NCBI RefSeq assembly: GCF_001306055.1
Contig: NZ_LGHJ01000005.1
Location: 8,508 to 40,507, forward strand
Direction: 5' to 3'
Source: Bellilinea caldifistulae
Lineage (GTDB): Bacteria > Chloroflexota > Anaerolineae > Anaerolineales > Anaerolineaceae
Length of the DNA stretch: 32,000 nt
The notes under the pieces were generated by a model. It was not told the origin of the DNA and did not search any database. It was given only the letters and a program-made list of their open reading frames with translations. Shown piece after piece: positions 3,570 through 29,678 of the stretch (position 1 is the stretch's first letter; each line of letters opens with the position of its first letter). Made by a program: the position numbers and the translations under genes.

Positions 3570-3635
3570 GGAGGCCCTCTCTTTTGTACAACTTGAAAAT
3601 CATGCCAAGTATAGCACAACCTGTTGTTGCTGTTC

Positions 3636-6760: not shown

Positions 6761-6762
6761 AT

Positions 6763-8013: not shown

Positions 8014-8056
8014 CGAGAACGCTTCTCCTTAAAGTACCGACCAACCCCTAATCAAT

Positions 8057-8062
8057 TATAAT
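8057..8062 (+). promoter_or_regulatory. Candidate -10 box (TATAAT) for the amidase gene; would give a leaderless or near-leaderless mRNA
   Basis: A perfect TATAAT lies 10 nt upstream of the ATG at 8073. No purine-rich SD lies between them ('attcagcccagt'). The -35 region is poor. Confidence 0.25.
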
Positions 8063-8072
8063 TCAGCCCAGT

Positions 8073-12075: not shown

Positions 12076-12175
12076 AGTTGAATGGTAGTAAAACCTTTTT
12101 GCTTGAAAATACAGTAATATTATTGTATTCAGGATTGGAATTCACTACCAAACAATTTTATCGGGGCATTACCCA

Positions 12176-14816: not shown

Positions 14817-16871
14817 ATGCCCAATCGTTTAATCAAAGAAACCTCTCCATATCTTCTACAGCATGCCCACAACCCCGTGGACTGGTATCCATGGGGCGAT
14901 GAAGCCTTGCAAAAAGCAAAACTGGAAAATAAGCCCATTTTTCTCTCCATCGGTTATGCTGCGTGTCATTGGTGCCATGTAATGGAAGAAGAATCTTTCA
15001 AAGACCCTCGCACCGCCAGTTACCTCAATCAATACTTTGTGCCCATCAAAGTGGATCGAGAAGAACGCCCCGATTTGGACAATCTATATATGAGCGCGGT
15101 CATTTCAATGACGGGTCAAGGTGGCTGGCCGATGAGCGTTTTTTTGACGCCTGACCTTAAACCTTTCTATGGGGGAACCTACTTTCCGCCGGTTCCACGC
15201 TATGGAATGCCCTCTTTTTTGGAAGTTTTAGAAGGCATTCAGCAGGTTTGGCAAACCAATCGGCAAAACATCGAATCGGTTGCCGAAAAAGTTTCAGAAT
15301 ACCTTCAGGAAACCAATCAGTGGCGTACTGTTACCGCATCTCAAATCAACCCGGAGCTGTTGGATCAAGCCGCAACAAACTTGATTCGGCATTACGACCG
15401 TCAAAATGGGGGCTGGGGCCGTGCGCCTAAATTTCCACAGCCCATGGTGATTGAGTTTCTTCTACACCGTCATTTCAGGGGCCAACCCGAATCGCTGGAG
15501 ATTGCACGACACGCGCTCGATGTGATGCAAGGGGGTGGTCTATGGGATGTTGTTGGGGGTGGTTTTCACCGTTACAGCACCGATAGTCGCTGGCTGGTGC
15601 CCCACTTTGAAAAAATGCTTTATGATAACGCCCTGCTTGCCCAGACCTATCTTCATGCCTACCTGCTGACCGGTGACATTGAATATCGTTACACCTGCGA
15701 ACGGACTTTGGATTTCATTTTACGAGAAATGACCCATTCCTCAGGTGGTTTTTATTCAAGCCTGGATGCCGACTCGGAAGGCGAAGAAGGCAGGTATTAT
15801 CTTTGGAGCAAAACCGAAATTCTCACAGCCCTTCAAAATCTTCCGGAAAGAGAGATTTTTCTGGCGACTTACCCACTACCAGATGAGGGAAATTTTGAAG
15901 GCAAAATTATCTTACAGAGTCGCGCTCCTTTCAATATTCTTGCTGCCGACCAGGGCTTACCGGTGCAAGAATATCTGAAACAGCTGGATATTCCTATCCA
16001 GGCACTTCACAGAGCACGCAGTGAACGGATTCGTCCTCACACGGATGACAAAATCATTGTTTCTTGGAACGCTCTGGCATTGCGTGCCTTTGCCGAGGCC
16101 GGTCATTATTTACAACGGCAAGATTATTTACTGGCAGCCCAAAGAAATGCCGCGTTTATTCTTGAAAATTTGATAAGCGAAAACACTCTTTATCGCACAT
16201 GGCGGCAAGGTATTTCTCGAACCCCGGCGTTTTTGGAAGATTATGCGGGTTTGGCGGTTGCCTTGCTTACCTTATATCAATTCGATGACAATTCCCGGTG
16301 GTATTTTGAAGCGCAGAGACTTGTGGAGTGGGTGATTGGTCGGTTCAAAGACCCTGAGGGCGGATTTTTCGATGCTGCCCAACAATCCTCAAATATACCC
16401 CTCCTCCCTAAATATCCACAGGACAACCCCATTCCATCGGGAAACGCCTTGGCTGCTCACGCCTTGATGCTTCTCTGGGCATTGGATGAACGCAGTTCCT
16501 ATCAGGAAATCGCTCTTGAATTACTGGCAACTCTACAACAAACCGCCGCAGAATATCCAACCGCCTTTGCATATTGGCTGCAGATTCAGGATTTTGCCGC
16601 TGGCCCAATTCAACAAGTCGCGCTGGTATCTCCCTCCTCATCTTTCCAGCCCCATTTGCAATGGTTTAGTCCGGCGGTGACACCCTACCATCCGCGTCGT
16701 ATTCGGGTATATGCTTCTCTGCCGCTTTCCGAACACGCCCCAAAAATTTTTGAGGAAAAATCCACAATACAAAATCAACCTACGGCTTATATCTGTCAAA
16801 ACTTTTCCTGTAAACAGCCGTTGGTGGACTTTGAGCAATACGTTCGAACCATTTCGGAAGGGTTAGCATAA
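14817..16871 (+). CDS. Thioredoxin-domain protein of the YyaL/DUF255 (SSP411-like) family
   Basis: Highly characteristic N-terminus '[33 protein letters not shown]...[22 protein letters not shown]', followed by a long alpha/alpha-barrel-like region. I prefer the ATG at 14817 (AGGTG 6 nt upstream) to the track GTG at 14811. Confidence 0.85.
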
Positions 16872-17620
16872 AAGCTGAGCATGACTTGATTAAATAACCC
16901 GGGCTGATCAATAGGTAAGGCATGACCACCGCCCTCGATGATCACATGACCGCCGTTAGGTAACAATTCAACTAACCTTTTTTGCAAGTACAATGGTATG
17001 GTTGTATCCTTTGCTCCGCTAACAACCAGCACCGGGTTTGTGATCCTTTTGGCCAATTCCCGCCCATCAAACCGGGTTAATGCCAGCATGGCCTGGCGAT
17101 ACACCTTTGGATCAGCCTGTTTAATGCTTTGAGTAAGCATTTCCCGAAAAAGTCTTTTGTCATCGCTTGGGAAAATTCTACTGGCAACCAATTCAGCCTG
17201 AGCTTGTGGAGAAAGGAAAAACGCCCGCACCCCTCTGCGAACAAAATACCGAAACTCACTCCATCTGCGGGGACGTAACACAGCAAAAGTGTTGACCAGC
17301 ACCGACATCAGCACAAGATCAGGATATTCTGCTGCAAGTTTCAACCCGATAACTCCCCCCATTGAAATCCCCATTAATCCCATTTTTTTGATCCCCGCGG
17401 AACGCAGAATTTGGACCAACTCTTGGGTAACCCGATCAAAATTCCACTGATCACCCTCAAAAATGGATTTTCCAAAGCCCGGTAAATCCGGTGCAATTAC
17501 CCGATAACCAGCATCCAAAAGCGCAGGTATTTGAAAATACCATGACTCGGCATTTGCCCCCAAACCATGAAGCAGGAGAATTGGAAAACCATCCTGTCGG
17601 CCTTCACTTATAATATTCAT
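16796..17620 (-). CDS. Alpha/beta-fold hydrolase
   Basis: 274 aa. '[14 protein letters not shown]' oxyanion region and 'GISMGG' nucleophile elbow (GxSxG). The 3' end overlaps the convergent upstream gene by 76 nt. Confidence 0.85.
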
Positions 17621-17710
17621 AGAAGTTCTCCCTTTGAGGAAAATTTCACAATTTTGTTCATGAATTTTTCTTATAAGTTTATAATACTATCAACACCTCA
17701 GGAGGAACAA

Positions 17711-18991
17711 ATGGAAAAATTTATTATAGAAGGCGGACATCCTCTGCATGGAGAGGTAACCCCAGCAGGCAATAAAAATGCAGCACTTCCATTGCTGGCA
17801 GCCTGTTTATTAACCGATGAACCGGTAATCCTGAGAAACGTTCCAGATATTCTGGACGTTCGTACAATGCGAGCCTTACTCGAAAGTCTTGGTGTTGAAA
17901 TTAAACCACTGGATACCCACACATGGCAGGTTCAAGCCAAAGTCATCCGTCCTGCCGACCTGGATCCCGATTTGACTCGTAAAATTCGTGCTTCTATTCT
18001 TCTGGCAGGACCGATGACCGCCCGTATGGGTGAATTGCGGCTGCCTCCGCCGGGAGGAGATGTCATTGGCCGTCGAAGAGTGGATACCCATATCCTCGCA
18101 TTGACCAAACTTGGCGCCAGGGTAACTTACGACCGTTATTTTTACTTTTCTGCAAGCGGTTTAACCGGTGCGGATATTCTGCTGGACGAAGCCAGTGTAA
18201 CGGCAACTGAAAACGCAATTATGGCTTGTGTAACCGCCAGAGGTAAAAGCGTAATCCGTAATGCTGCTTCCGAACCACATATTCAGGAATTGTGCCACTT
18301 TTTGAATACCCTGGGTGCAAAAATTGAAAATATCGGCTCTAATACCTTACATATCACCGGGGTCGAGAAACTTCATGGGGGTGAATTTACTATTGGTCCA
18401 GATTACTTAGAGGTAGTCAGTTTCATTGGGGCTGCCGCGGTGACGAAAGGTGAAATTTGGATCCGCAACGCTGGTAATCAGTATCTGGATATGATACGTT
18501 TGGTATTTGGACGATTAGGAGTTCACTGGGAAACCCATGGAGATGATATTTTCGTCCCTTCAAAGCAGAAACTGGAGATTGAACCTGATCTGGGAAACGC
18601 AATTCCAGAAATCAGCGTGATGCCCTGGCCCTCTTTTCCAACCGATTTGATGAGCATCGCCCTTGTCGTCGCTACCCAATCAAAGGGGACAGTTCTCTTT
18701 CATGACTGGATGTACCCAAGTCGCATGTTTTTCACCGATAAGCTGGTGGGAATGGGTGCCCAAATCGTACTTTGTGACCCACACCGCTGCATCGTGCAAG
18801 GCCCCACGGAATTGTATGGTGAAAAAATGGAAAGTCCGGATATCCGCGCCGGAATGGCTCTGGTACTCGCCGCTCTTTCTGCCAAAGGCACTTCGGTGAT
18901 CCGTAACATTGGTCAAATTGACCGTGGTTACGAAAAAGTAGATCAGAAACTCGCAGCCCTTGGGGCCAAAATTCAGCGAGCGATCGAATAA
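17711..18991 (+). CDS. murA: UDP-N-acetylglucosamine 1-carboxyvinyltransferase (MurA), Asp-type active site
   Basis: 'MEKFIIEGGHPLHGEVTPAGNKNAALPLLAA' is a typical MurA N-terminus. Active-site loop is 'LPPPGGDVIGRRRVDTH'. The ATG at 17711 lies 5 nt after a GGAGG. The track start at 17567 overlaps the divergent hydrolase gene and was rejected. Confidence 0.9.
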   Translation: MEKFIIEGGHPLHGEVTPAGNKNAALPLLAACLLTDEPVILRNVPDILDVRTMRALLESLGVEIKPLDTHTWQVQAKVIRPADLDPDLTRKIRASILLAGPMTARMGELRLPPPGGDVIGRRRVDTHILALTKLGARVTYDRYFYFSASGLTGADILLDEASVTATENAIMACVTARGKSVIRNAASEPHIQELCHFLNTLGAKIENIGSNTLHITGVEKLHGGEFTIGPDYLEVVSFIGAAAVTKGEIWIRNAGNQYLDMIRLVFGRLGVHWETHGDDIFVPSKQKLEIEPDLGNAIPEISVMPWPSFPTDLMSIALVVATQSKGTVLFHDWMYPSRMFFTDKLVGMGAQIVLCDPHRCIVQGPTELYGEKMESPDIRAGMALVLAALSAKGTSVIRNIGQIDRGYEKVDQKLAALGAKIQRAIE

Positions 18992-19048: not shown

Positions 19049-19408
19049 TCAATTGTTCTTGGCGGAAGCGCTTTGAACAACTTCCAAAAATTGATCCAGA
19101 ATCTCACGCAGCATTCCCTCGGGCAAAGCACCCACCTGACGATGTACCACCTTTCCGTTGGCAACAAATAACATCGTAGGAATACCCTGAACGCCATAAC
19201 GCATTGCCCATTCGGGGTTCTCGTCCGTATTAACTTTTGCGACAATTAATTTTCCAGCATACTCCGCAGCAATTTTATCGAGAATTGGAGCAACCATTCG
19301 GCAAGGACCACACCATGGCGCCCAAAAATCAACAATCACCGGCAGATTTGACTGAAGAACCGTTTTTTCAAATGCCGCATCGGTTACATGCACTGGTTCT
19401 TTAATCAT
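19049..19408 (-). CDS. trxA: Thioredoxin
   Basis: 119 aa. 'VDFWAPWCGPCRM' active site (WCGPC). Purine-rich SD 'GAGAGGAGAGAGGA' upstream. Confidence 0.9.
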   Translation of the reverse strand: MIKEPVHVTDAAFEKTVLQSNLPVIVDFWAPWCGPCRMVAPILDKIAAEYAGKLIVAKVNTDENPEWAMRYGVQGIPTMLFVANGKVVHRQVGALPEGMLREILDQFLEVVQSASAKNN

Positions 19409-19497: not shown

Positions 19498-19548
19498 AAA
19501 AAACTCAGACCTCTCATTAAGGTGTGAAGTTGCCGGGAGAGGTCTGAG
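19498..19548 (-). terminator. Rho-independent terminator downstream of hsp20
   Basis: On the minus strand, a 12-bp perfect stem ('ctcagacctctc' / 'gagaggtctgag') with a 21-nt loop is followed by TTTTTT (the A-run at 19498-19503 on the plus strand). Confidence 0.65.
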
Positions 19549-19583: not shown

Positions 19584-20024
19584 TCACTTAACTTTTACCG
19601 AGATCGTCTTGGGACGAACCTCCTCCACCTTGGGCAATATCAGCGTAAGTATACCATTTTCATACTCGGCTTTGGCTTTGTCCACATTGACAGTCACCGG
19701 CAACTGGACAGAACGGGTGATCATGCCGCTCCGACGTTCGCGGATATGATAGATGGCATCTTCATTGACCTTTTCTTCTTTAACTTCACCACGAATAGTG
19801 AGCACTCCATTTGCAACCGAAATATGGATATCTTCCGGTTTTACACCCGGCAGAACAGCTTTGACGACCACCTCATCATTGGTCTGATACATATCCAGCG
19901 CCATCCACTCATATCCGCGCCAGCCTTCTAATTGGCGAGTTAACATGTTGTCGAAAACTTGATCCATCATTGAACGCAGTGTTGCCATTTCGCGGAAGGG
20001 ATCAAAAACGGTCAGGTTTGCCAT
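19584..20024 (-). CDS. Small heat-shock protein (Hsp20/alpha-crystallin family)
   Basis: 146 aa. Alpha-crystallin domain ending in 'AEYENGILTLILPK'. SD GGAGG lies 6 nt upstream of the ATG. Confidence 0.9.
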   Translation of the reverse strand: MANLTVFDPFREMATLRSMMDQVFDNMLTRQLEGWRGYEWMALDMYQTNDEVVVKAVLPGVKPEDIHISVANGVLTIRGEVKEEKVNEDAIYHIRERRSGMITRSVQLPVTVNVDKAKAEYENGILTLILPKVEEVRPKTISVKVK

Positions 20025-20049: not shown

Positions 20050-20088
20050 ATTCTTATGCTCTTATTTAACATCGAAGAACATAAGAAT
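20050..20088. promoter_or_regulatory. Inverted repeat in the hsp20 upstream region (candidate operator)
   Basis: 'attcttatg'-N21-'cataagaat' (9-bp perfect arms), located 26-64 nt upstream of the hsp20 ATG. It matches neither CIRCE nor HAIR consensus. Confidence 0.2.
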
Positions 20089-20129: not shown

Positions 20130-20870
20130 CTAATCGGATGATTTCTTGGACGCCTCTCGCGAGAAGTCCACGAAGCGATAGCCCACCCCTCTTTCAGTGA
20201 GAATATACTTGGGGTTTGCCGGATCTTTCTCCAATTTTTGACGGAGATAGTTGATATACAATCTCACATAATGTGGCTCATCTCGATATTCGTAGCCCCA
20301 CACCTTTGAAAGCAATTGGTCATACGTCATGACCCACCCTGCATTTTGAACCAGATGATACAGCAGCCGATATTCTGTCGGACGTAATTTGACCAATTTG
20401 CCATCCACCCACACTTCTCGTCTGCCAAAATCAATTTTCAAACGATCGTCAATCTCATAGACTTCCTTGGAACCAAAACCGCTGGCTTCTGTTCGACGCA
20501 AAACAGCCCGAACCCGGCTAACCAGTTCCCTCGGACTGAAAGGTTTGGTTACATAGTCATCCGCACCCAATTCCAATCCACGCACCCGGTCATCCTCTTC
20601 CCCCTTCGCCGTCAACATGATCACCGGCACATTACTGATCTCCCGAATCATTTTCAAAACTTCAAAGCCATCCAGATCCGGCATCATAACATCCAAAATT
20701 ACGACATCCGGCATGGCATCTCTGAGTTGATGAATTGCTTCGAGTCCACGGTGCGCTTCCACCACCCTGAATCCATCATGTTCCAGATTCAAACGGATGA
20801 AGCGTGCCATTCGTTCTTCGTCGTCCACAACGAGAATGACGCGATTCTTAAAATCTTCATCTTGAGACAT
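20130..20870 (-). CDS. OmpR/PhoB-family response regulator (receiver plus winged-helix domain)
   Basis: 246 aa. Receiver residues are intact: 'VVDDEE', 'VILDVMMPDLDG', 'MLTAK', 'YVTKPF'. C-terminal Trans_reg_C region 'YRLLYHLVQNAG...TERGVGYRF'. No histidine kinase gene is adjacent. Confidence 0.9.
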   Translation of the reverse strand: MSQDEDFKNRVILVVDDEERMARFIRLNLEHDGFRVVEAHRGLEAIHQLRDAMPDVVILDVMMPDLDGFEVLKMIREISNVPVIMLTAKGEEDDRVRGLELGADDYVTKPFSPRELVSRVRAVLRRTEASGFGSKEVYEIDDRLKIDFGRREVWVDGKLVKLRPTEYRLLYHLVQNAGWVMTYDQLLSKVWGYEYRDEPHYVRLYINYLRQKLEKDPANPKYILTERGVGYRFVDFSREASKKSSD

Positions 20871-20874
20871 GGGT

Positions 20875-21114
20875 TTATTCCCTTACGAAGGTTATAATCT
20901 CTTCTTCCTCACTGGTCGGTAGAATTTCAATGAAGGTAATTCGACTCATCGGCCAAATCACCGTCGTAACATTCGGTTCAAGATAGTGTAAATCCTTGCC
21001 ATCCCTTTTTCTGGGATTTTTGAGGATAACTAAATTATCGGCGGGTGACGGTAAAGTGTCAACCTCACCAACGACGGGATCTTCATTTACAATGTGGAGG
21101 ATTAAGGTTGGCAT
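20875..21114 (-). CDS. Hypothetical 79-aa protein with acidic C-terminus
   Basis: The ORF fits exactly between the FHA gene (13-nt gap) and the regulator gene (4-nt gap) on the same strand. No motif I can assign. Weak Sm-like pattern 'VVGEVDTLPSPADNLVILKN'. Confidence 0.5.
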   Translation of the reverse strand: MPTLILHIVNEDPVVGEVDTLPSPADNLVILKNPRKRDGKDLHYLEPNVTTVIWPMSRITFIEILPTSEEEEIITFVRE

Positions 21115-21127
21115 TGCACCGTTCCGT

Positions 21128-21661
21128 TTATTTGTGAATAATCAATTGAAATTTTAACTTTCCCAACGCAATGACATCCCCATGCTTGACCGGATAATCA
21201 ACATGGGGCACAATTTTCTGTCCATTGACCCGGGTACCGTTAGCCGATCCCAAATCCATGATGGCTACCCGCTGCGATCCAATTTTGATTGCTGCGTGAA
21301 GTCGGGAAACCCCTTGCGTGTACGCTTCAAATTCAGATAAATCAACGTCCGGTAAAATGGGCTGCCCTTCGGCAATTCGCCCCAACGAAAACTCTGTCCT
21401 TCCGCTCAGGTGTATGGTTCTCCCCGAATCAATCATATGCAGAGATACAACCGGCTCCGATCCTTCGGCTACTGCTGTTTCAATTTTCACCTCTGGTATC
21501 GGCGCGCTGGAAAAAACTGCGCTTCCATTCAAAATATCCGAATTGACTTTTTCGAGATTTTGAGTGGTCAGCGTATCAACAGAAGTTAACTGGGCTCCAC
21601 ATTCACTACAAAACAAAGCACCCGGCAACTCCTGGTGCTGACAATTAGGGCATCGAATCAT
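21128..21661 (-). CDS. Zinc-ribbon plus FHA domain protein
   Basis: N-terminal 'CPNCQHQELPGALFCSECG' (CxxC-N12-CxxC). C-terminal FHA signature 'FSLGR...GVSRLHAAI...DLGSANGTRVNG'. The ATG overlaps the upstream stop (ATGA at 21658-21661). Confidence 0.85.
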   Translation of the reverse strand: MIRCPNCQHQELPGALFCSECGAQLTSVDTLTTQNLEKVNSDILNGSAVFSSAPIPEVKIETAVAEGSEPVVSLHMIDSGRTIHLSGRTEFSLGRIAEGQPILPDVDLSEFEAYTQGVSRLHAAIKIGSQRVAIMDLGSANGTRVNGQKIVPHVDYPVKHGDVIALGKLKFQLIIHK

Positions 21662-23133
21662 GACTCCCTCCTTGCCGGACTGGGCAATAAAAACAACGCT
21701 CGTGTGCCATACTTAATCTTCTTATCCCCTTCTTTACTGAATGAATGGGTTCTCTGAATATGATCCGCCTCAACAAGAACCGTTTTCGCCAGTTCACGAT
21801 CTCCCTGTGCAAGCAAATGCGTCGCCAAATGCTGCAAATGGCGCGTTGCTTTCCCAATATCTCCTGCCAATACTTCCAGCCGGGCCTTTTCCTGCAACCG
21901 ATAGAGGGTAATCTTTGACATTGCTTGAAGGATGGAAGTAGGGGGTTTCTCCGTCTGCCAATTCTCTCTGGTCTGTCGGGTAAGATGGATCGGATAACGG
22001 CCAAACGGATTCGCCAGGGATGGAACCTGCATTTGAATATGCCCTCTTAATAATTCAACCTCAATTTGGGTGCTGGAGAGAGGAGGTAGTTTGAATTCTA
22101 ATATGATACTGGTTTTTTTTCCATACTCAATTGTACCCAAAGGTATGGGCGATTCATTGCCAAGTGGCGTTATATCCGGATGAATGCGAAATACATAGCG
22201 GAGCTCGATACCTTCAGCCAAATTAAAAAACCATTCGATTTTTCTCGCGTAACTGACGGAAATTGATTTGATTTTATTTTCAATAAATTGGGTTAAGTCC
22301 TCATTACGGCTAACATAAATCGCATTTCCTCCGCTTAAAGCCGCAATCCGATCCAGGAAAATATCGTTCCATTCGTCCCCTATTCCCAGGGCATTGATGG
22401 GCACACCTTCCTCTCTGGCCTGAGCGGCCAGATCAATGCAATTTTGTTCATCTCCGTAGGTATGCCCATCCGTAATTAAAATCAGCTGTTTAATCATTCC
22501 TTCCCGGCTAAACCGTTGAATGAGGTCATAGCCGGTAGAAAGACCCTGGAAGATTTCTGTCGCCCCTCCAACCTGCAATTTACTGATCACACCATCCACT
22601 GCCGCCGGATCTTCCAGCTCTTTCGGGGGCAAAATCACCTCAGCCCGATCACTGAATGCCACGATGGACAACCGATCCTTTGTTCTCAACTTCCTTGCCA
22701 GGTAGATGATATTTTGCCGCACCATGTCAATACGATCACCTCGCATAGAGTTAGACCGATCTACAACCAGGCAAACATGAATGGGTGGCAGGTCTTTGGG
22801 ATCAGGTTGTTTGGGTGTGTCCAATTCCATCAGGACGTAAAAGAGTTGAGGCTCTTCCAACAATGGAATTTGTGACCGCCCGTAGGTGATCGAAATATTA
22901 ACCGCCGGCAATTCTTTTAACTCCGCCGGGAGTTGTTCATCATAGGCTGTGCGTTTTTTAGGATTAGAAAGTACCTCGTAGGCTTCCTGGATTTGTAAAA
23001 ACTTTTGTTTGGCAAATGGATCGGGATTAACATCCGGATGAAAACGTCGAGCAGCCTCGAAGTACGCCGTCCGGATTTCTTCCGCACTGGCATTGAAAGG
23101 CAATTCGAGGACTTGATAAAAAGTCGTTTTCAT
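21658..23133 (-). CDS. J-domain (DnaJ N-terminal) / von Willebrand factor A fusion protein
   Basis: J domain 'FYQVLELPFNASAEEIRTAYFEAARRFHPDVNPD...AYEVLSNPKKRTAYD' with an HPD tripeptide. vWA domain with a complete MIDAS ('VVDRSNSM', 'GGATEI', 'ILITDGHT'). About 200 aa of unassigned C-terminal region. Confidence 0.85.
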   Translation of the reverse strand: MKTTFYQVLELPFNASAEEIRTAYFEAARRFHPDVNPDPFAKQKFLQIQEAYEVLSNPKKRTAYDEQLPAELKELPAVNISITYGRSQIPLLEEPQLFYVLMELDTPKQPDPKDLPPIHVCLVVDRSNSMRGDRIDMVRQNIIYLARKLRTKDRLSIVAFSDRAEVILPPKELEDPAAVDGVISKLQVGGATEIFQGLSTGYDLIQRFSREGMIKQLILITDGHTYGDEQNCIDLAAQAREEGVPINALGIGDEWNDIFLDRIAALSGGNAIYVSRNEDLTQFIENKIKSISVSYARKIEWFFNLAEGIELRYVFRIHPDITPLGNESPIPLGTIEYGKKTSIILEFKLPPLSSTQIEVELLRGHIQMQVPSLANPFGRYPIHLTRQTRENWQTEKPPTSILQAMSKITLYRLQEKARLEVLAGDIGKATRHLQHLATHLLAQGDRELAKTVLVEADHIQRTHSFSKEGDKKIKYGTRALFLLPSPARRES

Positions 23134-23143
23134 TCTTTAACTT

Positions 23144-24079
23144 CTAGAAATACTGAACTAGAACCACACTGATATTGTCTGGACCTCCAGCAAGATTAGC
23201 GGCATCCACAAGATTTTTACAGGCAACGGAGGGATTGCGGGCACTGGCAATGATTTGGAATATCTCAGCTTCCGGCACCACTCCCCATAAGCCATCGCTA
23301 CAAATCATCAAATACCCTGGATGAGGCATTGGTAAGGATTGAATATCTGGACGGAACGGCTCGGCCTGACCGAGGGCACGATAAAGTACATTTCGATTGG
23401 GATGGACGGAAGCCTCCTGTTCGGTGATTTGACCCAATTCAACCAGGCGGCGCACCAGCGAATGATCCTGGGTTATCAACTGCATTCTACCATCCGGAAA
23501 TATAAAATAGGCTCTGCTATCTCCCACATGAGTAATTGTTACCTGTTCGCCAATTACCAGCGCAGCGGTCAGAGTCGTTCCGCCGCCCGGAGCGCGGCGA
23601 GTGACAGATTGTTGGGCTTTTGCAACCGCAATCTCCATGACCTCTTGTAGGCTTTCGCCACTTGATTCTCCATCCACACTGATGTGAGGAAGGTAAATTT
23701 TGCTCAGGATGGTTTCTACCACAGCTTTTGCAGCCACACTGCTGGCAACTTCACCATATTCATACCCTCCCATTCCATCCGCAACAACGAATAACCCGAA
23801 AGGTATTTCATTATTCCCGTCAGCAAGGACGGCAGAAAGGGAAAATAAAGCATCTTCATTATGTTCCCGCTGCCTGCCAACCGATTGACCACAACCCACC
23901 AGAAAGTGAGGAGGGGACATGGAAACCGTCGGGATAGAAACAACCTGTAATTGCTCCTCAGTTAATGGAGCAGTTTGAATATTCTCCACCAAGGGGCGGG
24001 TTTGAATACTATCTTTTTTTTCACGACCAAAGAGATTCTTTATAAACTTAAGCACTATTCCTCCAAAAATTCCCGCCAT
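23144..24079 (-). CDS. PP2C-family Ser/Thr protein phosphatase
   Basis: 'REHNEDALF', 'VVADGMGGYEYGEVAS', 'MICSDGLWGVV' and 'GGPDNISVVLV'. The ATG immediately follows the kinase stop codon (TGA|ATG). Confidence 0.9.
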   Translation of the reverse strand: MAGIFGGIVLKFIKNLFGREKKDSIQTRPLVENIQTAPLTEEQLQVVSIPTVSMSPPHFLVGCGQSVGRQREHNEDALFSLSAVLADGNNEIPFGLFVVADGMGGYEYGEVASSVAAKAVVETILSKIYLPHISVDGESSGESLQEVMEIAVAKAQQSVTRRAPGGGTTLTAALVIGEQVTITHVGDSRAYFIFPDGRMQLITQDHSLVRRLVELGQITEQEASVHPNRNVLYRALGQAEPFRPDIQSLPMPHPGYLMICSDGLWGVVPEAEIFQIIASARNPSVACKNLVDAANLAGGPDNISVVLVQYF

Positions 24080-25897
24080 TCATACCAAAATGGCGTAGAA
24101 AATGTGGTCTGCTGAACCAAAATAGACCGTATCGTTGAAGATCAATGGGGTACTTGTAATCGGACCTTCTGTTGCAAATTTCCAACGCAAGCGCCCGGTC
24201 TTCAACTCCAGACAATACAAATTTCCATCCGCCGAACCACAAAAAACCATCTCTTTATGCACAATCGGCGAACCACTCACCTGATGATTAGTCTGGTATT
24301 TCCAGATTTCACGGGAATTATTGGCATCAATGCAATAAATGTTGCCATCGGCTGAGCCGAAGAGCAAATAATGATCCATCCGGTACGGCGAAGATACCGA
24401 GCCTTTCATCATGCGATAGCGCCAAATCACCCAGCCACTTTTTGCATCCAGCGCATAAACCGATCCGTCCAGAGAAGTGAAATAGACAATTCCCTGGGCA
24501 ACCAGCGGCGAAGAAGTGATCGCTCTTTTAGCGCGAAACCGCCATTTTAGCTGACCTCGAAAATCAACACACAAAAAATCTCCACCTTCATTTCCAAAAT
24601 AAATCAGGTCATTGACGACCGCCGGTGAAGAGCGAATCGCCATCCCGGCATCTACTTTCATCACTCGCCGCATGGATAAAATGTTGACGCCGTACAGGAA
24701 GCCATCATCACATCCAAAAAATACATGCCCCTCAACGATTTTCGGAGAACTACGGATAGGGCTTTCCAACGGCAGGGTCCACGCCATTTTACCGGTCTTT
24801 GGTAGAATGGCATATAAATTCCCATCCTCAGACCCAACAAAAATCAAATCGTTGGTAATAGCCGGACGGGTGACGATTCCCCCATTGGTTGGAAATTTCC
24901 ATTTGAATTCACCGTTGGTCGCATCCAGGGCGTATAAATTGTGATCGTAAGAGCCAACATAGATGATCCCATTGTCATAGGAAGCCGAGCCCCGAATTTC
25001 ATCCTCACAGCGGAAAATCCAAATCGGTTTGACAACCTGTTCAGAAACTACCGCGGGCAGACTGATTCGAGATAAGGCACCGGTCTTCTTGGCTGCATTT
25101 AATAAGGCTTCTTTCATCGCTGCGGCAGATTGAAACCGCTCTTGCGGCGAATATTTCAAGGCTGTTTGGATGACGGTTTCCAGTTCGATACTCACGGCTG
25201 GATTGATTTGTCGAATCGGACGTTCCGCAAAGGAGAAAGGCGGTTCCATGCGAGGATCCCGTTTTGTAAGTAAATGATGCAGGGTTGCTCCTAATGCATA
25301 AATATCCGCCAGCGGCGAAGCTTCCCCTCGATACTGCTCTGGTGGGGAATACCCCTCCGTACCGATCATGGTTCCTTTTTGACCTTCACGGAACATTTTT
25401 GCAATCCCGAAATCAACCAGAACTACATGTCCTTGCTGGTTGATCATCACATTCGAAGGTTTCATATCCCGAAAGATAATCGGTTCCGGCTTGTGATTAT
25501 GTAAGTACTCCAGCACATCACAAATCTCAATCGCCCAACTAATGACTTTATCCTCAGGAATTGGCCCTTCACTTTCGTTGAGGATCGCCTCTAAATCCTT
25601 CCCATTAATGTATTCCAACACCAGATAGGAGCGTTCTTCGTGAGAAAAGTAATCAAAGATTTTTGGAATGGATGGATGATTGAGTGTAACCAGAATATTG
25701 GCTTCACGTTCGAAGTTTTGCACCACCGTTTGACGCACCAGCGGATCGCGTGCCTGATTGATCATCTCCTTGACTGCAACAAGTTTTATCACATTGGGAA
25801 AATGCAGATCGCGAGCCCGATAAACCGAGCCCATGCCTCCAACCCCGATTACATCTTGTATTAAGTACCGATCAACCAGAACAAAACCTGTCTGCAA
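24080..25897 (-). CDS. Hanks-type Ser/Thr protein kinase fused to an 8-bladed PQQ-like beta-propeller
   Basis: 'IGVGGMGSVYRA', 'VAVKEM', 'IIFRDMKPSNVMI', 'LVDFGIAK' and 'GTEGYSPPE'. Eight repeats of the type 'G.VY.GS.DG.LYALD..TG...WKF' follow. No TM segment separates the two domains. The only available start codon is the TTG at 25897. Confidence 0.9.
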   Translation of the reverse strand: MQTGFVLVDRYLIQDVIGVGGMGSVYRARDLHFPNVIKLVAVKEMINQARDPLVRQTVVQNFEREANILVTLNHPSIPKIFDYFSHEERSYLVLEYINGKDLEAILNESEGPIPEDKVISWAIEICDVLEYLHNHKPEPIIFRDMKPSNVMINQQGHVVLVDFGIAKMFREGQKGTMIGTEGYSPPEQYRGEASPLADIYALGATLHHLLTKRDPRMEPPFSFAERPIRQINPAVSIELETVIQTALKYSPQERFQSAAAMKEALLNAAKKTGALSRISLPAVVSEQVVKPIWIFRCEDEIRGSASYDNGIIYVGSYDHNLYALDATNGEFKWKFPTNGGIVTRPAITNDLIFVGSEDGNLYAILPKTGKMAWTLPLESPIRSSPKIVEGHVFFGCDDGFLYGVNILSMRRVMKVDAGMAIRSSPAVVNDLIYFGNEGGDFLCVDFRGQLKWRFRAKRAITSSPLVAQGIVYFTSLDGSVYALDAKSGWVIWRYRMMKGSVSSPYRMDHYLLFGSADGNIYCIDANNSREIWKYQTNHQVSGSPIVHKEMVFCGSADGNLYCLELKTGRLRWKFATEGPITSTPLIFNDTVYFGSADHIFYAILV

Positions 25898-26179
25898 TTG
25901 TTTGACAGGTCCTTGTCCTCCGCTAAAACTTTGAGTGATACGATGAGTATCCAGTTTAACCTCCCGGGACCGGAATCACCTTTCCCCCGAAAACACAATG
26001 TTATTAATCAAAGCCAAATAAGAAATCTTTTGAAATGCAAATGAAGAAGGGGTAGGATCAAACCTTTCGTATTGTTAAAATTATATCTACAAAACATCAT
26101 TTTGCAACCAAAATACTCCTTTCATTCTCCAAACAAGTTTTCATTACCTTTCTTTACAAACTGGACGACGCCTCGGTTT

Positions 26180-27725: not shown

Positions 27726-28067
27726 TCATTTTGAAGGGCGACAAATTTCACAAGGGCACAATTTTCGCAGGTAATGCCAGTTAAATATCCCAAAATGATG
27801 ACCATCTTCCCATTCGATGGTGATGGCATAGCTCCCAACTGCTTCCAGCTTTTTCATTCGTGTTGCTGGAGATTCAGGAAGATTAACTTCAAAAACCTCT
27901 TCGTCCGGTTCTGAACGCATATATTCATGTCCGCCGCGGCAGGAAGCACACGGGCAGGCTGCCCGTAACAATCCAAAGGGATATTGGGAAACGTGTCCAT
28001 CATCCCATTCTATCGTCAAAATCCGATTGGTGCGGTTGGCAGAAATTTTCGTCGGAAAATGATCCAT
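27726..28067 (-). CDS. DUF971 (gamma-butyrobetaine hydroxylase N-terminal-like, Zn-binding) protein
   Basis: 113 aa. 'ILTIEWDDGHVSQYPFGLLRAACPCASC' and a second half 'AITIEWEDGHHFGIFNWHYLRKLCPCEIC'. Confidence 0.7.
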   Translation of the reverse strand: MDHFPTKISANRTNRILTIEWDDGHVSQYPFGLLRAACPCASCRGGHEYMRSEPDEEVFEVNLPESPATRMKKLEAVGSYAITIEWEDGHHFGIFNWHYLRKLCPCEICRPSK

Positions 28068-28080
28068 GAAAAATACACCC

Positions 28081-28578
28081 TCAAGGTTGAGATTCGTTGT
28101 TCAAGTCAATCACCCTCAAAAAGCGAGAAGCAGCCCAGCCGCTTCTTTTATCGTCATACGGAGCCGTAAGATACCACCACACAAAACCATCTGCTTCTTT
28201 GGGACCATCTTCCACCTTAAACACTTCCGACTCATAACCGAGGAATAAGACATCTGCATTGGTTCCGGCATCTCGCCGGAGTCGCAACCCATCCCCACCT
28301 GTTCCCGAAATTTGGACAAATTTACCAACAGTAATCCCATCTATTGTAATCGAAAGAGCCGGTTGAGTAGCGGTGGGAGTGGAAAAAAGAGACATTTGAC
28401 CAACAGAAGTGGTGGTTGGGGCTGCTACAATCGTTAATACCGCCGTTGCTTTCTGCCCCGATTCAACTTGTGCAGGCCGTAACAACAAGATTGCCGCAAT
28501 GATGGCAGTAACCATCAGTATGGAAATCAAAACCGAGAGAAAAATCATCCTGAAGCCCAACCTTGGCAAACTTCTCAT
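28081..28578 (-). CDS. Membrane-anchored SH3b-like domain protein
   Basis: N-terminal TM 'MIFLSVLISILMVTAIIAAILLL'. The C-terminal 'GDGLRLRRDAGTNADVLFLGYESEVFKVEDGPKEADGFVWWYL...GWAASRFL' resembles a bacterial SH3 domain. Starts 2 nt after the antiporter stop. Confidence 0.45.
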   Translation of the reverse strand: MRSLPRLGFRMIFLSVLISILMVTAIIAAILLLRPAQVESGQKATAVLTIVAAPTTTSVGQMSLFSTPTATQPALSITIDGITVGKFVQISGTGGDGLRLRRDAGTNADVLFLGYESEVFKVEDGPKEADGFVWWYLTAPYDDKRSGWAASRFLRVIDLNNESQP

Positions 28579-28580
28579 GG

Positions 28581-29678
28581 TTACCCCCCGGTCGGTAGCA
28601 GAAAAAAGCCTATCCCGAGGATTATGTAAACTCCAAGCAAGGCTGCTCCCTCCAACCAGTTTGACTCTCCGTCAAAAGCTACCATTGCGGCTATCACAAC
28701 CCCGCCTCCTAACGCAAGCAATTCAAATCGGTTGAAAATTAAGGTTAGAGGATTACCAATCAACAAACTGATGAAAACCAGTATGGGAGCAACAAACAAC
28801 GCAATTTGTAAACTGGATGATACCGCTATTTCCAAGGAAAGGTCCATATTATTCCGAACCGCCATTGTCACCGACACCAAATGTTCTGCAATATTTCCGA
28901 TGAGTGGGATAAGAATCACCCCCAGAAAGAATTCCGACACACCAAGCGACACCACCACTTCTTCCACAGAACCAATCAGAAACTCGCTCATGATCACCAC
29001 TCCCAGGGTGGATAATGCCAGTATGGAAATAGCACGCGAAGGCTTCCAACGCCGGTTGGCTTCGCTCTCCAATTCAACCCCAGCAACCGCAATCGGACTT
29101 CTGGCTACTTTCAGGGTGTAAATCAAACCCACAACATACAAAGCAATCATTACCCCCGCTACCCCAAGACTCAACAATTCAACTCCCCAACTCCCCTCGG
29201 CACCAATTGAATGGCTGAAAAAGGAGGGAATTATCAATGCAACAATCACCACGACCAGCATCACAGCATGGTTCGAAGATTGCTGACGATCAAAACTTTG
29301 AATCCCGTTTTTTAATCCTCCCAGGAGCATAGAAAGGCCCATCACCAGCAATAAATTTCCGATGATAGACCCGGTGATGGAGGCTTTTACCAGATCCAGC
29401 AACCCCTGGCGAATCGCTATAATCGTAATGATTAATTCCGCGGCGTTTCCAAGGGTGGCATTCAGCAATCCCCCAATTTTTGGACCGGTGTATGCAGCCA
29501 ACGCCTCGGTTGACTCCCCAATTAATGATGCCAGAGGGATCACCGCAATCGCCGAAAAAACAAAAATCCAGATTGGCCTCCAATGGAAAATCTCAGAAAC
29601 CACACTGAGTGGGATAGCCAGCAATAAAATGTGCAGGGGGTGTTTGCGGAAGTAAGAGATCAATGAATTCATGAACAA
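28581..29678 (-). CDS. Ca2+/H+ (cation/proton) antiporter, CaCA/CAX family
   Basis: 365 aa with about 11 TM helices. The two alpha-repeat signatures 'LGNAAELIITIIAI' and 'LIGNIAEHLVSV' are both present. Confidence 0.85.
   Translation of the reverse strand: MFMNSLISYFRKHPLHILLLAIPLSVVSEIFHWRPIWIFVFSAIAVIPLASLIGESTEALAAYTGPKIGGLLNATLGNAAELIITIIAIRQGLLDLVKASITGSIIGNLLLVMGLSMLLGGLKNGIQSFDRQQSSNHAVMLVVVIVALIIPSFFSHSIGAEGSWGVELLSLGVAGVMIALYVVGLIYTLKVARSPIAVAGVELESEANRRWKPSRAISILALSTLGVVIMSEFLIGSVEEVVVSLGVSEFFLGVILIPLIGNIAEHLVSVTMAVRNNMDLSLEIAVSSSLQIALFVAPILVFISLLIGNPLTLIFNRFELLALGGGVVIAAMVAFDGESNWLEGAALLGVYIILGIGFFLLPTGG

Follow-up and report, generated by a model that had tools for sequence, protein, structure and literature searches.

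What kind of system joins, in one tight block of minus-strand genes, a protein kinase, a phosphatase, a phosphothreonine reader, a J domain, a small protein and a transcription regulator? In the window considered here (the whole 32,000-nucleotide stretch of DNA that was analyzed), the block reads Ser/Thr kinase (STK)-propeller, PP2C, DnaJ-vWA, Zn-ribbon-FHA, 79-aa ORF (orf79), and OmpR-type regulator. All six open reading frames of the original prediction are present where it placed them, with the domain content it described. Read directly in the sequence, the spacing between neighboring genes runs from -4 to 13 nt: in gene order, TGA directly followed by ATG at the kinase/PP2C junction (0 nt), 10 nt, an ATGA overlap, 13 nt, and 4 nt. 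The gene-neighborhood comparison that the original prediction had proposed covered 80 Anaerolineae species genomes, with loci counted only where the contig was long enough; gene order and strand proved identical in every one of the 80 species-level loci so counted. The J-vWA and FHA genes lie within 20 nt of each other in 84 of 86 loci and overlap in 59, orf79 and the regulator gene lie within 20 nt in 75 of 79, and order and spacing are kept over J-vWA identities of 40 to 95%. Such an arrangement is far beyond chance. Because synteny in the main clade reaches past the operon to murA, trxA, and DUF971, part of this conserved order reflects general synteny. Judged from its sequence, the block of six genes is nonetheless a genuine operon, and it is maintained across the whole of the Anaerolineae.

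Transcription as one unit, which had been called almost certain from the junctions, is backed both by the conserved tight spacing and by a single conserved upstream promoter of sigma70 type (26080-26107, minus strand; TTGCAA-N16-TATAAT, extended to TATAATTT; promoter score 10/12). The promoter k-mer TATAATT occurs in 46 of 76 non-redundant loci, whereas shuffled sequences give 13 at most; GTTGCAA occurs in 20 of the 76. Across loci the promoter keeps a fixed position about 110-130 nt 5' of the start codon. That start codon is most likely the conserved CTG at 25954, 57 nt upstream of the TTG at 25897 chosen by the gene-calling tool. The reading frame from CTG 25954 was confirmed, a Shine-Dalgarno sequence (GGGAGG, 25960-25965, minus strand) stands 5 nt 5' of the proposed CTG, and such a sequence lies at most 16 nt from the conserved start position in 43 of 44 loci. 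The N-terminal peptide (L/V/M)[DE]TxRITQxF is conserved, with CTG as first codon in 37 loci, GTG in 4, TTG in 1, and ATG in 1. With the kinase start moved, the operon block would span 20130-25954. A k-mer comparison across loci found no conserved regulator-box-like motif 5' of the operon or 5' of hsp20/trxA.

Downstream on the same strand lie hsp20 (19584-20024; HSP20, 6.9e-19) and trxA (19049-19408; Thioredoxin, 4.4e-32). The original prediction gave each its own terminator, and both were found: a 12-bp stem with U-tract (z = -2.55) at about 19498-19548 for hsp20, and one at 19031-18995 for trxA, which also has a promoter-like site with a TG-extended TATACT at 19466-19437. No terminator-like site was found between the regulator gene and hsp20, and transcription of the operon may continue into hsp20. 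The latter is a variable neighbor, following the regulator directly in no more than 22 of 79 loci; trxA is the usual one, directly after the regulator in 46 of 79, typically at gaps of 50-170 nt. The flanks are syntenic with murA, trxA, glnA, and DUF971, no GC anomaly was detected at the locus, and the operon looks chromosomal and vertically inherited. A Bellilinea metagenome-assembled genome matches the window at about 95% identity.

The first gene (24080-25954, called as 24080-25897; minus strand) encodes a Hanks-type Ser/Thr kinase with a C-terminal PQQ/BamB-like beta-propeller and no transmembrane segment (Pkinase, 5.9e-42; Beta-prop_ACSF4, 1.5e-70). Its best NCBIfam match is AfsK-like, at a score far under the cut-off. 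Kinase identity across loci is 58-98%, and the propeller is well conserved rather than diversifying. The second product (23144-24079, minus strand) is a PP2C Ser/Thr phosphatase, Stp1/IreP-like (PP2C, 7.5e-16; 210 bits against NF033484, cut-off 230). The catalytic residues K43, D144, N149, and D162 of the kinase are each found in 81 of 81 orthologues, and the metal-binding D76, D101, D187, D262, and D301 of the phosphatase in 83 of 83. This conservation supports the competence of both enzymes; across the operon, the kinase, PP2C, FHA, MIDAS, HPD, and receiver residues are kept in about 95-100% of orthologues.

The third protein (21658-23133, minus strand; DnaJ, 5.3e-21, residues 5-65; VWA, 1.2e-20, residues 120-284) consists of a J domain (1-67), two beta-strands (79-105), the vWA domain (118-292), a beta-sandwich (294-389), and a four-helix bundle (399-479), and its AF2 model (pLDDT 87.7, pTM 0.82) has the tripartite topology of ArnB. 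The top Foldseek matches are 4fx5 (3e-24), the ArnAB chains 8s05_A/B (8e-23, 5e-22), and the ArnB paralog 5a8j (3e-19), separated by four orders of magnitude from generic vWA proteins; its profile matches 8s05_A at 1.3e-15. Sequence identity in the structural alignment is only 14-17%, and a Pfam search gave no match of an ArnB_C-type model to the C-terminal bundle. The MIDAS residues D125, S127, S129, T192, and D222 are present in 87 of 87 orthologues. The original description of the J domain as Hsp70-recruiting fits the HPD motif, kept in 84-86 of 87; contact with DnaK is likely, and recruitment of Hsp70 to the complex is a more speculative role. Where helix 4 of the modeled bundle ends lies the invariant motif I-K-Y-G-T477-R-x-L (21694-21717, minus strand), in which T477 and Y475 occur in 87 of 87 sequences and L480 in 86, the J-less clades of loci L081 and L084 included. 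T477 is a candidate phospho-Thr site, with Leu at pT+3 as in a potential FHA ligand; the phospho-sites of ArnB likewise fall within the helical bundle and are followed by Arg (PMC6509490, PMC12852372).

The reader of such a mark would be the product of the next gene (21128-21661, minus strand), which overlaps the J-vWA gene by ATGA and encodes an ArnA-type Zn ribbon, a linker, and an FHA domain (FHA, 4.8e-14; Zn_Ribbon_1, 2.3e-5). The ribbon spacing, CxxC-N10-CxxC, is identical to that of ArnA; its four Cys are kept in 87 of 89 orthologues, and the pThr-binding residues R95, S119, and H122 in 89 and N141 in 88. PDB matches include ArnA (5a8i) and 8s05_C; in sequence similarity ArnA does no better than other FHA proteins.

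The orf79 product (20875-21114, minus strand), a strongly conserved protein, is modeled as a five-strand Sm-like beta-barrel with an acidic C-terminal helix (AF2 pLDDT 89); no family was found for it in Pfam, NCBIfam, or PADLOC searches. It has 363 homologues, of which the best 120 listed show 65-97% identity, and almost all are 79-80 aa long; clustering at 50% identity gave 256 clusters. Its top 50 Foldseek matches are nearly all Sm/LSm or Sm-like, with probability near 1 and TM 0.5-0.6 at E values of only 0.02-0.2. The gene always stands between the FHA gene and an output gene in the loci compared, and remains paired with the regulator gene in loci L091 and L092, where the kinase module is missing. 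The OmpR/PhoB-family response regulator (20130-20870, minus strand; Response_reg, 2e-33; Trans_reg_C, 5.4e-25) begins 4 nt past orf79 and, at 70-98% identity across loci, exceeds all other products of the block in conservation. It had been described as retaining all phospho-acceptor residues with no histidine kinase beside it, and this is borne out: D17, D60, T87, and K109 are present in 80 of 80 loci and D16 in 79, and the sole histidine kinase in the window (2514-3569) is of HisKA_3 type, with no OmpR-compatible one there or in loci L086 and L090. So complete an Asp-phosphorylation site argues that the main input of the regulator is a histidine kinase rather than the STK.

The J-vWA protein is encoded in at least 591 genome stretches. 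Three more distant clades (loci L081/L082/L099, L084, and L102/L103) keep STK, PP2C, vWA, FHA, and orf79 with a vWA protein lacking the J domain, and in these, which are a few metagenomic contigs of undefined taxonomy, the slot after orf79 is taken by the gene for an ECF sigma factor, for a ComM-like AAA+ protein, or for a CpXC protein. Locus L103 also encodes an FHA::winged-helix protein in convergent orientation. That one clade has an ECF sigma factor in the place of the regulator makes a transcriptional output more plausible, and such factors are among the known direct targets of Hanks kinases.

Taken together, we lean toward reading the locus as an Anaerolineae Ser/Thr-phosphorylation switch operon, the core of which corresponds, in bacteria, to the ArnA/ArnB module of archaea and is controlled probably by its own kinase and phosphatase. 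The reason is that the J-vWA protein has the tripartite fold of ArnB and that the gene overlapping it encodes a Zn-ribbon-FHA protein of ArnA type. In the mechanism envisioned, these two proteins would be made together from overlapping genes, while the soluble propeller-kinase would sense a cytoplasmic cue and phosphorylate Thr residues in the C-terminal bundle of the vWA protein (the invariant T477 motif is the prime candidate), with PP2C reversing the mark. By homology with ArnAB, the Zn ribbon may tether the FHA protein loosely until the FHA domain is recruited by phospho-Thr and the complex becomes tight. More speculatively, the J domain could bring in DnaK/Hsp70 as an ATP-driven remodeller, the role played by MoxR-type AAA+ proteins for other vWA proteins. 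The state of the complex might then be relayed, probably via the Sm-like protein, to the product encoded after orf79, which in the Anaerolineae clade is the OmpR-type regulator with its normal Asp phospho-acceptor site. Since that site is kept, the regulator probably combines the switch signal with input from acetyl phosphate or from a histidine kinase encoded elsewhere.

Three other readings are less probable. Two separate units could share the transcript, the STK/PP2C/FHA/vWA set acting on other cellular targets, for instance in growth, the envelope, or division, in the manner of AfsK or of the Fha-PstP-Pkn operon of actinobacteria, while the regulator, perhaps with orf79, serves as an ordinary two-component protein under an unlinked histidine kinase. 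The fully conserved receiver site, the survival of orf79 and the regulator without the kinase module in L091, the lack of a conserved regulator box near the operon, conserved murA nearby, and the kinship of the kinase with AfsK, its closest named relative and likewise a propeller kinase, whose targets are non-operonic, all speak for this. Yet we consider it rather unlikely, given the tight orf79/regulator spacing, an order invariant across widely diverged loci, and the links to transcription from the sister clades, where an ECF sigma factor follows FHA-orf79 and an FHA::winged-helix protein adjoins the third variant. Less likely still is proteostasis as the main output, with J-vWA a phosphorylation-gated co-chaperone handing a MIDAS-bound client to DnaK and the regulator, hsp20, and trxA as co-expressed stress genes. 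Conserved HPD and MIDAS residues would suit it, as would hsp20 and/or trxA after the operon in 68 of 79 loci and the frequent service of vWA proteins as adaptors for remodellers such as MoxR; but three sister clades keep the other five genes without the J domain, which makes the latter an add-on rather than the core function, and the trxA/murA linkage resembles general synteny.

A very improbable role is that of an anti-phage or conflict sensor, akin to the TerY-P triad or the MoxR-vWA ternary/Esr systems, in which the propeller would detect an invader and the switch start a defense. In 2020, Gao et al. reportedly described a defense variant of the TerY-P triad. The vWA, PP2C, and STK are those of TerY-P, the Esr pathway too has propeller sensors, vWA proteins, kinase/phosphatase pairs, and FHA outputs, and the kinase domain matches PADLOC models PD-T4-6 and mad6. 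Those PADLOC matches are, however, to generic kinase and PP2C catalytic domains, with none for vWA, FHA, or orf79; the kinase carries no Zn-ribbon or OB fusion, and its propeller does not diversify. Each genome has a single conserved locus with the same housekeeping surroundings, in 80 species at the least and probably in over 590, and the 32 kb contain neither a nuclease or toxin effector nor MoxR or mobile-element genes. A patchy, island-like spread or a hypervariable propeller would favor this reading, and neither is seen. Of the suggested stress, proteostasis, or conflict sensor with transcriptional output, the output has gained plausibility from the ECF sister clade, the conflict part finds no support, given that inheritance looks vertical and the flanks are housekeeping genes, and the hsp20 link is weak (22 of 79).

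Comparison with known systems places the locus more closely. The H1-T6SS of Pseudomonas aeruginosa (PpkA/PppA/Fha1), the comparator chosen originally, shares a kinase, a PP2C, an FHA reader, and a vWA domain somewhere in the system, yet proves the wrong one: PpkA is a membrane kinase with a fused periplasmic vWA, whereas here a soluble kinase accompanies a separate vWA protein of ArnB fold. The FHA protein scores 17.7 bits as TagH/Fha against a model cut-off of 120, and the window contains no T6SS genes and, as first noted, no MoxR genes.

The combination of vWA, STK, and PP2C, with or without FHA, is itself a recognized recurrent module. In the TerY-P triad, a predicted phosphorylation switch, a TerY-like vWA protein and PP2C are encoded with an STK-Zn-ribbon protein (Anantharaman et al. 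2012, summarized in PMC10542128); here the kinase bears a propeller instead of a Zn ribbon or OB fold, a separate protein combines the ribbon with FHA, the vWA protein is of ArnB type, and the locus shows no association with Ter, restriction, or CoCoNuT genes. MoxR-vWA ternary systems pair a vWA adaptor with an ATP-driven remodeller, and the Esr threat-sensing pathway has, beyond this, a kinase/phosphatase pair, with a propeller as sensor and an FHA protein as output (PMC7159879; PMC13622651). In the present operon the J domain, hence Hsp70, would take the place of a MoxR AAA+ ATPase, the propeller is cytoplasmic and conserved, effector domains are lacking, and the distribution is of housekeeping type. 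By domain types, DRA0331-DRA0334 of Deinococcus radiodurans, a vWA, STPK, FHA, and PP2C operon read as a push-pull phospho-docking module (bioRxiv 10.64898/2026.01.23.701218), is a bacterial likeness, but its gene order differs, its phosphatase has its own KI-FHA domain, and a J domain, orf79, and regulator are not reported there.

Structure and sequence both point to the ArnA/ArnB switch, so the core is of an already known kind. In Sulfolobus acidocaldarius, where they repress motility (PDB 5A8I, 5A8J, 8S05), adjacent genes encode the Zn-ribbon-linker-FHA protein ArnA and the vWA protein ArnB, under Hanks-type kinase(s) and a phosphatase (PMC6509490, PMC12852372). ArnB has the same vWA inserted in a beta-sandwich, an intact MIDAS, and a C-terminal helical bundle with conserved Thr, and the structural match of J-vWA to it is, together with that to 4FX5, the best in PDB. 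Unlike that module, the present one is bacterial, has no archaellum context, and includes a propeller kinase and a PP2C rather than a PP2A in the same operon. We found no published description of the six-gene composition, in keeping with the original failure to recognize one; what sets this uncharacterized operon apart from known ArnA/ArnB is three additions to the core, namely the N-terminal J domain, the Sm-like orf79 protein, and the OmpR-type regulator.

An ORF listing recovers all six minus-strand reading frames (20130-25897) where the original prediction had placed them, and each of its domain calls is upheld by Pfam and NCBIfam. The first gene encodes a Hanks-type Ser/Thr kinase joined to a PQQ/BamB-like propeller without a membrane segment (STK-propeller; Pfam, NCBIfam). 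It is followed by a PP2C phosphatase, a protein (J-vWA) in which Pfam recognizes DnaJ at residues 5-65 and VWA at residues 120-284 ahead of some 200 further residues, a Zn ribbon-FHA protein, a 79-aa reading frame without a family (orf79), and an OmpR-type regulator. The junctions, as read in the sequence, are a TGA|ATG abutment (0 nt), 10 nt, an ATGA overlap, 13 nt, and 4 nt. Genes for hsp20 and trxA lie downstream on the same strand, and a terminator was found for each. Inside the six-gene block there are no terminator-like sites above chance, and the spacer between the regulator gene and hsp20 holds nothing terminator-like; base composition is uniform throughout the window. The tight junctions, the spacing kept among loci, and a conserved upstream promoter bear out the view that the six genes form an operon. 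A strong promoter consensus match within orf79 (21062-21034) was set aside as an internal promoter, since the match count equals the expectation from shuffled sequence.

A conserved operon promoter, GTTGCAAA-N16-TATAATTT, lies at 26107-26080; the leader downstream of it, some 120 nt long, shows no unusual structure. The possibility that this leader contains a regulatory RNA or thermometer was considered and dropped (fold z-score +1.87; nothing relevant in Rfam), and an apparent conserved leader element, CTGGAWAC, proved to be the start of the kinase coding sequence. Translation of the kinase probably begins at a CTG at 25954-25952, 5 nt after GGGAGG on the minus strand. This codon lies 57 nt upstream of the TTG chosen by an ORF caller that accepts ATG, GTG, and TTG (minus-strand region 25898-25965), and its use adds 19 residues (LDTHRITQSFSGGQGPVKQ) to the kinase. 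An N-terminal peptide of the form (L/V/M)-[DE]-T-x-R-I-T-Q-x-F is encoded from the start codon in at least 44 of 83 loci; the codon itself is CTG in 37, GTG in 4, and TTG and ATG in one each, with a Shine-Dalgarno sequence in 43 of 44. The putative CTG start would be a rare documented instance of non-canonical initiation kept across a clade. The same peptide contains a Thr with Ile at +3 and could be an FHA docking site.

J-vWA homologues number in the thousands. Nearly all of the best 120 have 480-495 residues (three are fragments); the full-length ones are 47-100% identical, and those that are named belong to Chloroflexota or Anaerolineae. In a scan with each GTDB species represented by one genome, at least 591 stretches encode a J-vWA relative, and the best 80 loci, those analysed here, all come from Anaerolineae, with Bellilinea, Anaerolinea thermophila, A. 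thermolimosa, Thermanaerothrix, Longilinea, Levilinea, Leptolinea, and Ornatilinea represented. A Bellilinea MAG (L006) is about 95% identical to the window. Every sufficiently long locus among these 80 keeps the order STK, PP2C, J-vWA, FHA, orf79, regulator on one strand, with J-vWA identities of 40-95%; no protein of the block is better conserved than the regulator (70-98%). Spacing is similarly kept: the J-vWA and FHA genes have a median separation of -4 nt (overlapping in 59 of 86 loci), orf79 and the regulator gene 5 nt (20 nt or less in 75 of 79), PP2C and J-vWA 12 nt, and FHA and orf79 15 nt. The gene after the regulator is trxA in 46 loci, hsp20 in 22, and another in 11. Because synteny in the main clade reaches beyond the operon to murA, trxA, DUF971, and a second kinase block, the conserved order alone is no proof of function. 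The full form with J-vWA and regulator is also present in other Anaerolineales (L086, L087, L090).

Structural comparison identifies the core of the operon as homologous in fold to the ArnA/ArnB pair, the Zn finger-FHA and vWA proteins of the Sulfolobus motility-repression switch. The J-vWA family profile matches chain A of PDB 8S05, the Sulfolobus ArnA/ArnB complex (PMC6509490, PMC12852372), at 1.3e-15, and the FHA protein matches chain C of the same entry as well as ArnA (5A8I). In the AlphaFold (AF2) model of J-vWA (pLDDT 87.7, pTM 0.82), the J domain is followed by two beta-strands (79-105), the vWA domain (118-292), a sandwich (294-389), and a four-helix bundle (399-479), so that the model predicts the architecture of ArnB: a vWA domain within an eight-stranded beta-sandwich, then a C-terminal helical bundle. 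Insertion of vWA into a beta-sandwich is an unusual topology shared by ArnB, vWA2, and 4FX5 (PMC6509490, PMC12852372). These proteins also head the Foldseek results for J-vWA, with 4FX5 at 3e-24, 8S05 chains A and B at 8e-23 and 5e-22, and 5A8J at 3e-19 (TM by target 0.66-0.73); later matches begin at 3e-15 and pass to Sec23/24, as expected from the relation that the ArnAB literature draws between these folds. In a Pfam scan of J-vWA, DnaJ and VWA were the only families at E<=0.01; the ArnB_C signature (IPR040929) was absent, and the likeness of the modelled bundle to that of ArnB is structural only.

The FHA protein is built like ArnA, with a CxxC-N10-CxxC Zn ribbon, a linker, and an FHA domain (Zn_Ribbon_1 and FHA in Pfam); the spacing of its cysteines is that of C21/C24/C35/C38 in ArnA, and the ATGA overlap couples its gene to that of the vWA protein. 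In Sulfolobus, ArnA is loosely attached through its Zn finger to the sandwich and bundle of ArnB. Once the kinases ArnC and ArnD have phosphorylated bundle threonines, the FHA domain clamps on and the complex becomes tight; a phosphatase reverses the reaction (PMC6509490, PMC12852372). From the fold match and the ArnA-like partner it follows that the operon specifies an ArnAB-type pair in a bacterium and, on one transcript with it, a kinase and a phosphatase.

Residue conservation, counted across 80-89 orthologues per protein, indicates that this machinery is intact. Kinase residues K43, D144, N149, and D162 and the metal-binding aspartates of PP2C are invariant. In the FHA protein, R95, S119, and H122 are present in 89 of 89 and N141 in 88, with the four Zn-ribbon cysteines in 87 of 89. 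The vWA domain retains an intact MIDAS (D125-x-S127-x-S129, T192, and D222, each 87/87), and the J domain (PF00226, 5.3e-21) has its HPD motif between helices II and III (H32 84/87, P33 86/87, D34 84/87). Judged by these conserved active sites, the "writer, eraser, reader" logic that had been proposed for the kinase, phosphatase, and FHA protein holds. Four S/T positions are conserved in the helical bundle (409, 438, 466, and 477). T477, in an I-K-Y-G-T-R-x-L motif, is found in 87 of 87 sequences, including those of distant clades that lack the J domain; its Leu at +3 agrees with common FHA preferences. The mapped phospho-threonines of ArnB likewise precede Arg (PMC6509490, PMC12852372). We infer from this conservation that T477 is the best candidate for a switch residue of the vWA bundle.

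Sequence conservation marks orf79 as a genuine gene. It has 363 homologues, the best 120 of them 65-97% identical and nearly all 79-80 aa long, and an exhaustive profile search gave 256 clusters at 50% identity, which consist for the most part of standalone proteins some 80 aa in length. It has no sequence-family match in Pfam or NCBIfam. In the orf79 model (pLDDT 89), five strands form a barrel and an acidic helix follows at the C-terminus; nearly all of its top 50 Foldseek matches are Sm/LSm proteins or Sm-like domains, at probabilities of 0.98-1.0 and TM 0.49-0.60 with weak E values of 0.02-0.2. Canonical Sm members have an N-terminal helix and Sm1/Sm2 motifs; the orf79 model has the C-terminal helix instead of the N-terminal one. 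The gene represents a new, highly conserved small-protein family, positioned between the switch and a variable output.

Two further connections of orf79 to kinases were followed and rejected. A Rosetta-stone fusion of the kinase propeller to orf79 (proteins P0363 and P0352) has a propeller-homologous N-terminus (E=5e-20), yet the locus of P0363 looks decayed: L097 2975-4849 has a 312-aa ORF with only the kinase domain, an ORF of 42 aa, and propeller blades fused in frame to residues 15-79 of orf79; PP2C, vWA, FHA, and regulator are all missing. It looks like an internal deletion remnant or decayed copy of the system. The genes of a distant, longer orf79 subfamily (130-175 aa) have no kinase module beside them and are flanked by a Big_5 protein and topA. 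In this subfamily (L094-L096; P0374, P0376, P0379, P0380, P0387, P0388) both the barrel and the C-terminal helix (…ELLRRVREA) are retained, with a long linker, acidic and of low complexity, between them. On the P0387 and P0388 contigs the orf79 gene comes after the Big_5 protein, and in L095 topoisomerase I and xerC are next.

The contexts of divergent orf79 and vWA relatives define the conserved unit as STK-propeller, PP2C, ArnB-like vWA, ArnA-like FHA, and orf79. In metagenomic contigs this unit occurs with a vWA protein that has no J domain, and is followed by an ECF sigma factor 12 nt on (L081, L082, L099), by a ComM/Mg-chelatase-like AAA+ protein (L084), or by a CpXC protein (L102, L103); identities to the window proteins are 26-35% for vWA, 41-42% for STK, and 36-45% for orf79. 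Elsewhere orf79 has an OmpR regulator 4 nt further (L092), stands with a regulator 75% identical to that of the window and no kinase module upstream (L091), or lies between FHA and an opposite-strand gene (L088, L089, L093). These arrangements identify the J domain as a clade-specific fusion and the gene after orf79 as a variable slot. A transcription factor fills the slot in two of the four variants seen, and a third variant has one nearby. The transcriptional output that the original prediction proposed for the operon is probable, with an ECF sigma factor or OmpR regulator directly after orf79 and an FHA::winged-helix protein nearby in L103; direct activation of ECF sigma factors by Hanks kinases is documented.

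That FHA::winged-helix protein (235 aa; L103 6127-6834, minus strand) joins FHA to an OmpR-type winged helix with no receiver domain, and its gene is convergent to the J-less cluster ending in CpXC; such a protein would be a transcription factor reading phospho-Thr directly. In two metagenome contigs of 66-68% GC (L104 95-1408, L105 1819-2949), a Zn-ribbon segment lies directly upstream of an ArnB-like vWA gene and is possibly fused to it, with a Ser/Thr kinase following in L104. The putative Zn-ribbon-vWA layout recalls the Zn-finger and trunk arrangement of Sec23/24.

The regulator itself is an OmpR/PhoB-family protein, with a receiver that has the acidic pocket, phospho-Asp, Thr, and Lys (D17, D60, T87, and K109 in 80/80; D16 in 79/80) and a winged helix. 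It falls below the NCBIfam equivalog cut-offs for RpaB, MtrA, PhoB, and WalR. Regulators of this family usually have their histidine kinase encoded next to them; as had been noted, no cognate kinase is adjacent here. The only histidine kinase in the window (2514-3569) is of HisKA_3 type and about 17 kb away, and HisKA_3 kinases generally pair with NarL-type, not OmpR-type, regulators. A search for a conserved regulator box by k-mer enrichment upstream of the operon gave only the promoter and the coding-sequence start, and in the spacers between the regulator and hsp20 or trxA the same approach gave only Shine-Dalgarno and -10-like words, barely above background. The regulator-hsp20 spacer of the window does contain an 8-nt inverted repeat, TTCTTATG-N21-CATAAGAA (20051-20087, minus strand), about 30-60 nt upstream of the hsp20 start, which could be an operator or a chance occurrence in AT-rich DNA.

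A second kinase block comprises DUF971/GBBH-like_N (27726-28067), the 165-aa orf165 without a family (28081-28578), a Na/Ca exchanger (28581-29678), and STK2, a kinase-only protein of 357 aa (29775-30848, plus strand). In most loci (L001-L087) no more than 10 kb separates this block from the operon, and STK2, orf165, and DUF971 remain its neighbours; in L074 and L086/L087 the block is inverted and on the other side of the operon, still adjacent. ArnAB also uses two kinases, ArnC and ArnD, and by analogy STK2 may serve the switch as its second kinase. An insertion of 1.3 kb in one Anaerolineales MAG (L068 11976-13307) separates the FHA gene from orf79 and encodes an STK2-like kinase 40% identical to STK2 of the window. 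The HisKA_3 gene opens a region (2514-13462) with GT87 and PMT_2 membrane glycosyltransferases (5285-8013), interleaved with large ORFs that have no Pfam match at E<=1e-5 (3636-5288, 8873-10393, 10390-12075, 12176-13462); it looks like an uncharacterised envelope-glycosylation cluster. The called murA ORF (17567-18991, plus strand) overlaps an alpha/beta-hydrolase gene (16796-17620), and its true start is probably the internal Met near residue 49, because the EPSP_synthase match begins only at residue 55.

By homology to ArnAB, the kinase would phosphorylate the vWA bundle, the FHA domain would clamp on it, and PP2C would reverse the modification. Domain logic suggests that the J domain would recruit DnaK to the complex. 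A remodelling or reset role is favoured, because vWA proteins typically use ATP-driven remodellers and because an AAA+ gene follows orf79 in L084; sensing of chaperone availability is equally open. From its gene position, orf79 may couple the switch to the downstream factor. Since the regulator keeps a perfect Asp site, conventional phosphorylation by an unlinked kinase or acetyl phosphate is expected, and the STK module would modulate the regulator by sequestration, release, or Thr phosphorylation. These elements might be combined into an undescribed Anaerolineae device, a tentative proposal that we think more apt to fail than to stand: an ArnAB-type phospho-Thr switch would be equipped with J-recruited Hsp70 as an ATP-dependent reset or remodelling engine, and the Sm-like orf79, as an adaptor, would hand the switch state to interchangeable transcription outputs. 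Hsp70, brought in through the J domain on the vWA subunit, would here replace the AAA+ partners of other vWA proteins, and the outputs would be the OmpR regulator in this lineage and, among sister clades, either an ECF sigma factor or an FHA-winged-helix protein. Were the device real, Ser/Thr, His-Asp, and chaperone-availability signals would be integrated in one complex.

ArnA/ArnB has so far been an archaeal curiosity, though its fold is related to the Sec23/24 core; a counterpart that matches the pair in structure is universal and single-copy in a large bacterial class, and there the operon includes the kinase and phosphatase. Reconstitution should be much easier, since every component is known and cultures exist of several host species. 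Fusion of the J domain to the vWA protein suggests that Ser/Thr signalling is directly connected with Hsp70, a kind of link little explored in bacteria. No new principle is involved; the system is an uncharacterised, lineage-wide, and tractable model with concrete predictions.

By composition the operon stands apart from several known systems. The type VI secretion regulators PpkA/PppA/Fha1, originally offered as comparator, do not fit: the FHA protein reaches 17.7 bits with the TagH/Fha model TIGR03354, far below its cut-off of 120, and none of the window ORFs is a T6SS gene, nor do the 32 kb contain any FtsW or PBP gene. A conflict sensor, also suggested at the outset, fares no better. PADLOC gives only generic kinase and PP2C matches, and none for the vWA, FHA, and orf79 proteins, so that membership in a defence system was rejected; no MoxR, effector, or mobile-element gene is present in 32 kb. 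In the TerY-P triad the kinase carries a C-terminal Zn ribbon, replaced by an OB fold in defence variants, as a defining feature (PMC10542128), whereas the window kinase ends in a PQQ-like propeller; the vWA protein has no TerY-type match in PADLOC, NCBIfam, or Pfam. MoxR-vWA ternary conflict systems link a MoxR AAA+ ATPase and effectors to vWA (PMC7159879); the operon and the 32 kb of the window have no AAA+ or effector gene. The literature searched contains no paper on the Anaerolineae operon or on a J-domain-vWA/FHA system. The nearest bacterial report is the vWA/STPK/FHA/PP2C operon DRA0331-0334 of Deinococcus (bioRxiv 10.64898/2026.01.23.701218). The core logic is already known from its well-studied archaeal precedent; new here is the bacterial form of the ArnAB-type switch, in which a J domain is fused to the vWA protein and members of a new small-protein family and a response regulator are added.
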